Source: Actinomycetota bacterium (lineage in GTDB: Bacteria; Actinomycetota; Acidimicrobiia; Acidimicrobiales; GCA-2861595). From it: a DNA stretch of 42,348 nt. The notes below the pieces were generated by a model. That model was not told the DNA's origin and made no database searches. It saw only the letters and a list, made by a program, of their open reading frames with translations. Shown here piece by piece: positions 1,708-3,236 of the stretch (positions within the stretch are counted from its first letter, which is position 1; each line of letters begins with the position of its first letter). The position numbers and the translations under genes were made by a program. The DNA lies in assembly GCA_002861595.1 (NCBI GenBank), contig PJQG01000076.1:28276-70623 (forward strand), given 5' to 3'.

Positions 1708-3236
1708 GCGAGCAGGTCGGGCCCAGCGGCGAGGGGTTGGGGCCCCGGCGGGCCTATGAGACGGCGCCGGGTGGGGATGGGCCCCCCGCCTTCGGCGAGG
1801 AGCCGGGGTTGGGGCCCCGGCGGGCCTATGAGACAGTTGTCGGGTTGGAGGTCCACTGCGAGCTGCGCACGGCCACCAAGCTGTTCTGCGCCTGCCGCAA
1901 CGCCTTCGGCGACGACCCGAACACCAACGTGTGCCCCGTCTGCCTCGGGCTGCCCGGGTCGCTCCCGGTGCTCAACGCCCGGGCCGTGGAGCTGGCCATG
2001 CGCATCGGTGAAGCCCTCCACTGCGAGGTGCGCCGCAGCATCTTCCACCGCAAGAACTACTTCTATCCGGACATGCCCAAGGACTACCAGGTCAGCCAGT
2101 ACGACGAGCCCATCAACGTCGACGGCTGGCTGGAGCTGCCCGATGGGTCCCGCGTGGGCATCGAGCGGGCCCACCTGGAGGAGGACACCGGCTCCAACCG
2201 CCACGTCGGCGGCGACGGGCGAATCCACAACGCCGACTACTCCCTCGTCGACTACAACCGGGCCGGCGTCCCCCTGGTGGAGATCGTGAGCCGCCCCGAC
2301 ATCCGCTCGGCCGAGCAGGCCCGGGCCTACGTGAGCGAGCTTCGGGCCATCCTGGTCGCCATCGGTGCCTCCGACGGCAAGATGGAGGAGGGGTCTCTGC
2401 GGGTCGACGCCAACGTTTCGGTCCGCCCCGCCGGCAGCGACCAGCTCGGGACCCGCTGCGAGGTCAAGAACCTCAACTCGCTGCGCTCACTCGGCCGCGC
2501 CATCGACCACGAGGCCGCCCGCCAGTGGGAACTGCTCCAGGCCGGCGAGCGGGTCGTGCAGGAGACCCGGCACTGGAACGAGGCCCAAGGACGCACGGTG
2601 TCCGGTCGCTCCAAGGAGGAGGCCTACGACTACCGGTACTTCCCGGAGCCCGACCTGGTGCCCGTCGACCCCGGCGAGGCGTGGCGGGACGAGGTCCGCC
2701 GGGCCCTGCCCATGCTGCCCGCGGCCCGCCGGGAGCGACTGGCCAGGGCCGCGGGCCTGTCGCCCGCCGGCGTGGCCACCGTCGTCGAGCTGGACCTCGA
2801 CACACTGGTGTTGGCCGCCATCTCGGCCGGGGCGGACGGCCGCCGCGCCGTCAACCGGGCGGCCAACGAGGTGGCCGCGGATCTCGACGGCGCCCGCCGG
2901 CTGGATCCGGCCGCCTTCACCAAGCTCCTGCTGCTGGAGGACGCCGGCAAGCTCACCGCCACCCAGGCCAAGCAGGTCCTGGCCGAGATGCTGGCCAGCG
3001 GGGGCGATCCCGAGGAGCTGGCCGCAGCCCGGGGGTTCAAGGCCATGGAGGCCGCCGAGGTGGCGGCGCAGGTGGACGCCCTCATCGCCGCCCACCCGGG
3101 CGAGTGGGAGCGGTTTCGGGGAGGCGACGCCAAGGTGACCGGCTTCTTCGTGGGGAAGGTCATGAAGGCCACCCAGGGCAAGGCCGACGGCCGGGCGGTG
3201 ACGGCGCTGTTGCAGGAGCGCGCAGAGCTTTCGTGA
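1704..3236 (+). CDS. gatB: Asp/Glu-tRNA amidotransferase subunit B, with a repeat-derived N-terminal extension
   Basis: [36 protein letters not shown] overlaps the gatA stop; an alternative TTG start at 1809 is possible. Confidence 0.97.
1714..1834 (+). repeat. Coding palindromic element: internally deleted copy (~1714-1752) plus full copy (~1758-1824); exact 30-bp direct repeat at 1733-1762 and 1805-1834
   Basis: 1761-1824 matches the reverse complement of the cimA repeat unit at 56/64 positions (manual alignment); 72-bp period keeps the frame. Confidence 0.9.

Follow-up and report, generated by a model that had tools for sequence, protein, structure and literature searches.

The stretch of DNA analysed here as a whole, referred to as the window (42,348 nucleotides), comes from the assembly of a soil bacterium of the order Acidimicrobiales (2.18 Mb, 71% G+C, 86% complete), in which several repeat arrays other than the one considered below contain N gaps. 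The window opens with gatA followed by gatB, both recognised by profile matches. The reading frame at 1704–3236 represents GatB, being matched by the NCBIfam models TIGR00133 and NF004012 from residue 41, and the conserved GatB fold starts at residue 41–42, where the alignment of five solved GatB sequences begins. Ahead of this fold, the 5' end of gatB contains 1.4 copies of a repeat, namely a full copy and a 30-nt leading piece, with 35 extra in-frame codons (+105 nt). The following features are located in this region:

274–1707, forward strand: gatA, matched by TIGR00132 above the cut-off; its TGA stop codon (1705–1707) overlaps the gatB start
1704–3236, forward strand: gatB, 510 amino acids from GTG 1704 (GTGA, a -4 overlap with gatA)
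1708–1732, forward strand: ambiguous stretch of gatB N-terminal codons from the host, in which decayed element sequence may also be present
1733–1762, forward strand: leading partial copy made up of hairpin 2 from its loop through its 3' arm, then the tail and TATGAGAC; exact duplicate of 1805–1834
1761–1832, forward strand: full 72-nt unit, 24 codons in the gatB frame, matched by both nhmmer and a covariance model; present as +72 nt in the congener G003 relative to the empty congeners G001 and G002
1765–1797, forward strand: hairpin 1, 12 pairs, bulged close to its base; 98% of cells paired, with two-sided changes in 6 of 12 pairs
1802–1821, forward strand: hairpin 2, 95% of cells paired, with two-sided changes in 3 of 8 pairs
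1822–1836, forward strand: element tail, merging with the host Y-E-T codons

The original prediction described a truncated and a full copy of an element lying 72 bp apart. A perfect 30-nt direct repeat at this offset (1733–1762 and 1805–1834) is indeed present. Exact repeats of at least 30 nt at a spacing of 40–120 nt occur 22 times in the genome, and 16 of them derive from the same two-hairpin family; thus, the duplication in gatB is not a chance match. The truncated copy had been placed at about 1714–1752, of which the duplicated segment at 1733–1762 is secure. Its extension back to 1714 is rejected, since the similarity of 1708–1732 to the 5' part of the element stands at chance level, with a score reached by 40% of 20,000 random genomic 25-mers. 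One contig from another sample of the same study differs at 1725–1726, towards the element sequence. The full copy, predicted at about 1758–1824, required a correction of its borders: it starts at 1761 with the ACGG motif, its hairpins end at 1821, and its tail reaches to about 1832–1836.

Another claim was that host codons had been duplicated together with the element, and it holds in part. The residues Y-E are host-like, as the empty congeners read P-Y-E-I-V-V-G at this place; however, 20 of 72 aligned copies carry a motif (A/G)TGA(G/A) in their own tail. Therefore, host and element overlap at Y-E by short homology.

A family of two-hairpin repeats in Acidimicrobiales

The element is a repeat of about 72–78 bp with two hairpins, found by nhmmer as 58 matches in 37 loci of the source genome and by the covariance model as 57 matches. 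Each unit opens with a conserved ACGG, followed by hairpin 1, the GAGGA linker and hairpin 2, and closes with a tail rich in A. Across 72 copies, 96.8% of cells are paired, compared with 88.4% in shuffled controls and 40–58% in slid controls, and two-sided changes occur in 96 cells versus 25 in the shuffled control; the structure was drawn from these same related copies, so that the controls lean its way, and the covariation counts are not independent events. Pairs of the G-T type outnumber those of the A-C type (33 versus 7), which indicates a structure specific to one strand. When folded as a single sequence, the gatB copy does no better than shuffled versions (z of -0.07 and -0.12); thus, the hairpin structure rests on covariation rather than on folding energy. 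An Rfam search over 1500–2100 gave no match to an E-value of 5, and hence none over the gatB copy, while literature searches (without supplements) yielded no description of a two-hairpin family of this kind.

In BLAST comparisons, 13 of the 21 other family genomes contained the element, with 0 of 5 in genus g7, and so did 2 of 19 genomes that belong to the order but to different families; one of these 2 is marginal. The count of 13, as well as the family-wide gatB count and the GatB tree given below, includes genomes marked as unpublished (G009, G010, G011, G018 and G020). The covariance model, run under strict filters with 30 candidates scored per genome, matched 1 of 150 genomes of the class and 1 of 150 genomes of the phylum, the same genome both times. 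Additionally, an exact repeat pattern recovered 21 stretches, all from Acidimicrobiales, Acidimicrobiia, or unplaced Actinomycetota or Actinomycetes.

Variation in the form of the repeat was also seen. A short variant devoid of hairpin 2 occurs in the source genome G000 (C16:15099, C19:1069, C26:4820, C41:9783 and C88:14978), apparently as a deletion between two GGCCGGG repeats; the C19 array has a period of 57, equal to 78 minus 21. In G158, a genome of the same class and another order, 3 of 5 matches are longer (104–106 nt) with an extended second hairpin, and the copies L137, L141 and L145 abut apparent tRNA gene ends, as judged by eye. The window also contains a second, unrelated hairpin repeat family (16804–16843 and 37385–37424), with about 15–17 loci in the source genome, as well as short-period tandem repeats (12, 15 and 18 nt) within long open reading frames (4557–4692 and 22826–22942).

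Genomic positions and reading frames of the copies

Most copies lie close to the ends of genes, with 28 of 37 loci at most 60 nt from a called stop codon, compared with 17% of random places. The neighbours are housekeeping genes, and the junctions occupied include those of atp, prfA-prmC, thrS-hit and ftsH-folE. Copies are located in the atp operon of the source genome and of two congeners, and several element sites are common across the genus. When both flanking genes are co-directional (32 loci), the element is found in sense orientation 22 times and in antisense orientation 10 times. These 32 loci, typed with a simple hexamer-model gene caller, comprise 4 internal in-frame copies, 4 N-terminal fusions (including gatB and cimA), 3 C-terminal fusions, 10 coupled chains of mini-ORFs, 6 loci without a chain, 4 cut by N gaps, and 1 with a doubtful gene call. 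Two further sites in the window belong to the fusions:

27636–27712, reverse strand: leuC copy, read as the leuC C-terminus with its stop codon overlapping the next start; +78 nt relative to the empty site in G002
34219–34370, reverse strand: two tandem cimA copies with a period of 75, antisense and read in frame within the cimA N-terminus

The parallel originally drawn between gatB and cimA is therefore borne out, as the start of cimA carries a tandem pair of copies on the opposite strand, spaced by 75 bp.

The lengths of insertions were determined relative to empty relatives. Within coding sequences, all are multiples of three: truA +144, argD +72/75, a HerA-like gene +69, leuC +78, and gatB +105. 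At GTGA overlaps, which the empty relatives show at the sites of coupled chains, they are mostly of the 3n+2 type (65, 80, 83 and 164), and two sites are of the 3n+1 type (52 and 121). Of 24 arrays, some of them orthologous, 21 have a dominant period of 3n and the remaining 3 one of 3n+2, and the 3n+1 type is absent; periods of 74–77 occur. Since a stop triplet is absent from every frame in 68 of 72 cores, open frames alone prove little, and only the lengths are informative. Moreover, the natural unit (75–78) is itself 3n, so that selection is not required to explain part of the frame pattern. In truA (L001:1194–1325), the two copies are antisense and lie in a loop whose length is increased in G005 and G019 too, without the element being there.

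Start codon, role and history of the gatB insertion

The original prediction further proposed that the element could donate an alternative translation start to gatB. The arrangement on which this proposal was based is present as described: GAGGAG (1797–1802) lies six bases ahead of TTG 1809–1811, which is in frame with GTG 1704. The association of both with the hairpins was likewise confirmed, as the TTG opens the loop of hairpin 2 (1809–1814), and the spacer after GAGGAG is the 5' arm of this hairpin and is predicted to be paired. In favour of a working internal start, which would restore a near-native GatB N-terminus, are the Shine–Dalgarno-like hexamer itself, which is mostly predicted to be unpaired, and the resulting product with 11 residues before the GLEVH motif, as in the empty congeners. 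However, the spacer between the hexamer and the TTG is locked in a covarying stem, and G003 reads TCG in place of TTG 1809. Among 40 arrays that have a gene downstream on the element strand and a readable loop, an in-frame, open TTG as loop triplet occurs in 4, below the one in three expected by chance; in three more arrays no loop could be read. Furthermore, all 30 gatB orthologues retain an in-frame start within positions -8 to +1 of the gatA stop, at -8 (13 genomes), -4 (14), -1 (1) and +1 (2); without the four genomes marked as unpublished (G009, G010, G018 and G020), the count is 26 of 26. The predicted cost of opening the ribosome footprint is 23.4 kcal/mol at TTG 1809 and 19.9 kcal/mol at GTG 1704, both values being high. 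In translational coupling, ribosomes terminating on gatA would reach GTG 1704, which overlaps the gatA stop codon. The repeat at gatB is a real feature whose local expansion is supported, and its use as an alternative start is unlikely. The GAGGAG–TTG pair is a structural part of the element rather than a selected start, and minor initiation at TTG 1809 may occur.

A different role would be that of a regulatory device kept by the host, in which hairpins in mRNA or coupling relays tune the stoichiometry of operons, gatB being one of the targets. Such a role would fit the clustering of copies at the housekeeping-operon junctions named above, the sites common across the genus, and the conserved pairing of the hairpins. 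Nevertheless, the element is patchy even within the genus, with gatB empty in two of three congeners; the 10 antisense loci among 32, and four copies inside genes, also speak against this role, and the bias towards junctions is equally expected from the survival of neutral insertions. A regulatory function kept by the host is quite improbable as the explanation of the gatB copy.

The assembly at gatB was checked on contigs, not raw reads, of two samples. In X1, possibly the source sample, a contig identical over 1539–1821 leads through the first 30-mer to the full copy. Two contigs of X2, a second sample from the same study, align here: one, with 5 differences, spans 1575–1785, and the other matches 1797–2069 without any. 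The junction is therefore crossed by contigs of both samples, but no single piece covers both 30-mers end to end. An assembly artefact, to which this gap, the 86% completeness and the N gaps in other arrays might point, can hardly explain the duplication, given the contigs of two samples that cross the junction, the element at the same site in G003, and the preserved reading frame.

The comparison of gatB 5' ends among relatives, suggested in the original prediction, revealed that copy number varies within the genus (0, 1 and 1.4). In G001 and G002, the site is empty, with 11 residues ahead of GLEVH; a single in-frame copy occupies this site in G003 (+72), and the source genome has the full copy with the additional 30-nt piece (+105). 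This series supports the proposed tandem expansion after insertion. In G006, a copy lies at a nearby gatB position (L044:594–720), still in frame, with another hairpin nested in hairpin 2, so that 57 residues precede GLEVH. Altogether, 2 of the 17 family relatives read carry the element at the gatB 5' end. A 45-residue leader ahead of the GLEVH motif is present in G035, without the element.

In the GatB tree, which is based on one gene and midpoint-rooted, with 23 of 30 loci used, the source genome is sister to the group of G003, G001 and G002 (100/96), and G006 represents a separate gain. The simplest history suggested by these sequences would be one insertion in the ancestor of the genus, followed by a clean loss in G001 and G002; alternatively, two insertions may have occurred at one hotspot. 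The flanks of the insert are both TGAAAC in G003 and both TGAGAC in the source genome, and this paired change suggests expansion and collapse of copies between the flanks. Across the genome, 53 of 68 arrays have no flanking duplicate of at least 12 nt, so that the ends of the element are not pinned down.

Overall, the evidence argues with considerable confidence for a repeat that probably inserted in frame at Y-E, expanded locally, and probably now forms a tolerated N-terminal extension of 35 residues, with translation beginning at the gatA-coupled GTG 1704. Within the repeat family, gatB is one ordinary site, with a likely tolerated N-terminal insertion.

Proposed movement of the element and its relation to known repeats

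A plausible course of events at gatB would begin with insertion at a TGA-containing motif through short homology between the element tail and the host TATGAG, so that the insert became flanked by short direct repeats. Tandem copies could then have arisen and been trimmed through slippage or unequal exchange between the two flanks, and frame-keeping outcomes alone would have survived in a housekeeping gene such as gatB. More tentatively, the hairpins may serve as a strand-specific signal for a mobilising enzyme and not as a regulator of mRNA, given that their pairing is conserved even though the copies face either way relative to the host genes.

A broader proposal is that of an actively moving two-hairpin mini-element without a transposase of its own, whose structure is read by some enzyme and which is inserted as concatemers longer than one unit at TGA-type motifs and is cleanly removable. 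Concatemer insertion would account for the leading 5'-truncated pieces, seen as 3'-end pieces of at least 12 nt in 15 of 68 arrays. Active movement of this kind is conceivable, and on balance it appears doubtful. Domain PF01797 of the Y1/RAYT type was found in none of 22 family genomes, which are incomplete assemblies, compared with 6 of 14 controls. One IS110 hit, apparently broken, was detected in the genome, and no link to the element was seen. Close to its start, this hit (L114:640–960) is broken up by sequence that, as judged by eye, resembles the 3' end of a group II intron. A fixed target-site duplication was considered as a general rule and rejected, as the mean similarity of left and right flanks is modestly higher than in the null (6.8 versus 5.1) and is driven by 13 of 68 arrays.

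Among known repeats, MIRUs vary in tandem copy number, as in MIRU-VNTR, and the arrays of the present element are alike in this respect. MIRUs are not known to show dyad symmetry, and they generally lie in gene orientation. In contrast, the element has two compensatory hairpins, occurs in both orientations (22 sense and 10 antisense), and forms many in-frame fusions. The section on MIRUs in PMC12548453 describes them, after Supply et al. 1997, as short repeats inserted at start codons, with an internal ORF coupled at -4. A similar arrangement is seen at 10 of 32 loci of the element family, which form complete stop/start-coupled chains; the gatB copy is instead an in-frame fusion. The likeness to MIRUs is one of described features, and the single phylum genome matched by the covariance model belongs to the same class as the source.

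Another comparison concerns the Rickettsia palindromic elements (RPEs), presented in the relevant part of PMC10969869 as palindromic repeats lying in frame in unrelated housekeeping genes. As read from the genes, the present element likewise appears to be fused in frame to gatB, cimA, truA, argD, miaB and leuC. However, it measures 72–78 bp, whereas RPEs are given there as about 150 bp long with one conserved peptide (PMC10969869). It further differs in being read in several frames and on both strands, in its tandem arrays and coupled mini-ORFs, and in its occurrence in Acidimicrobiia. Since it lacks defining features of both MIRUs, as they are generally understood, and RPEs, the element is filed under neither; it may be viewed as MIRU/RPE-like, resembling MIRUs at coupled junctions and RPEs in fusions.

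REP/BIME sequences with their RAYT enzymes, as well as MITEs derived from IS200/IS605, are characterised by bulged, imperfect hairpins, G-T pairs biased to one strand, and a short motif conserved at the foot of the hairpin. The present element has all three traits as well; it differs in being largely coding or coupled rather than extragenic, and in the lack of PF01797 in the 22 family genomes. With regard to classical MITEs, the consensus of the element has no terminal inverted repeat, and its flanking duplicates range from none to 33 nt.

The repeat family described here combines coupling of the MIRU kind with protein fusion of the RPE kind in an element with a covarying structure, for which no transposase was found and which varies between close relatives. 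It is thus useful for asking how such repeats move. In practical terms, the element leads to extended or displaced gene starts in annotations of Acidimicrobiales, and it breaks assemblies, with several arrays at N gaps. If the reading as a mobile element is true, the family would offer a direct handle on the spread of MIRU-like repeats and would continually supply essential proteins with new terminal peptides.
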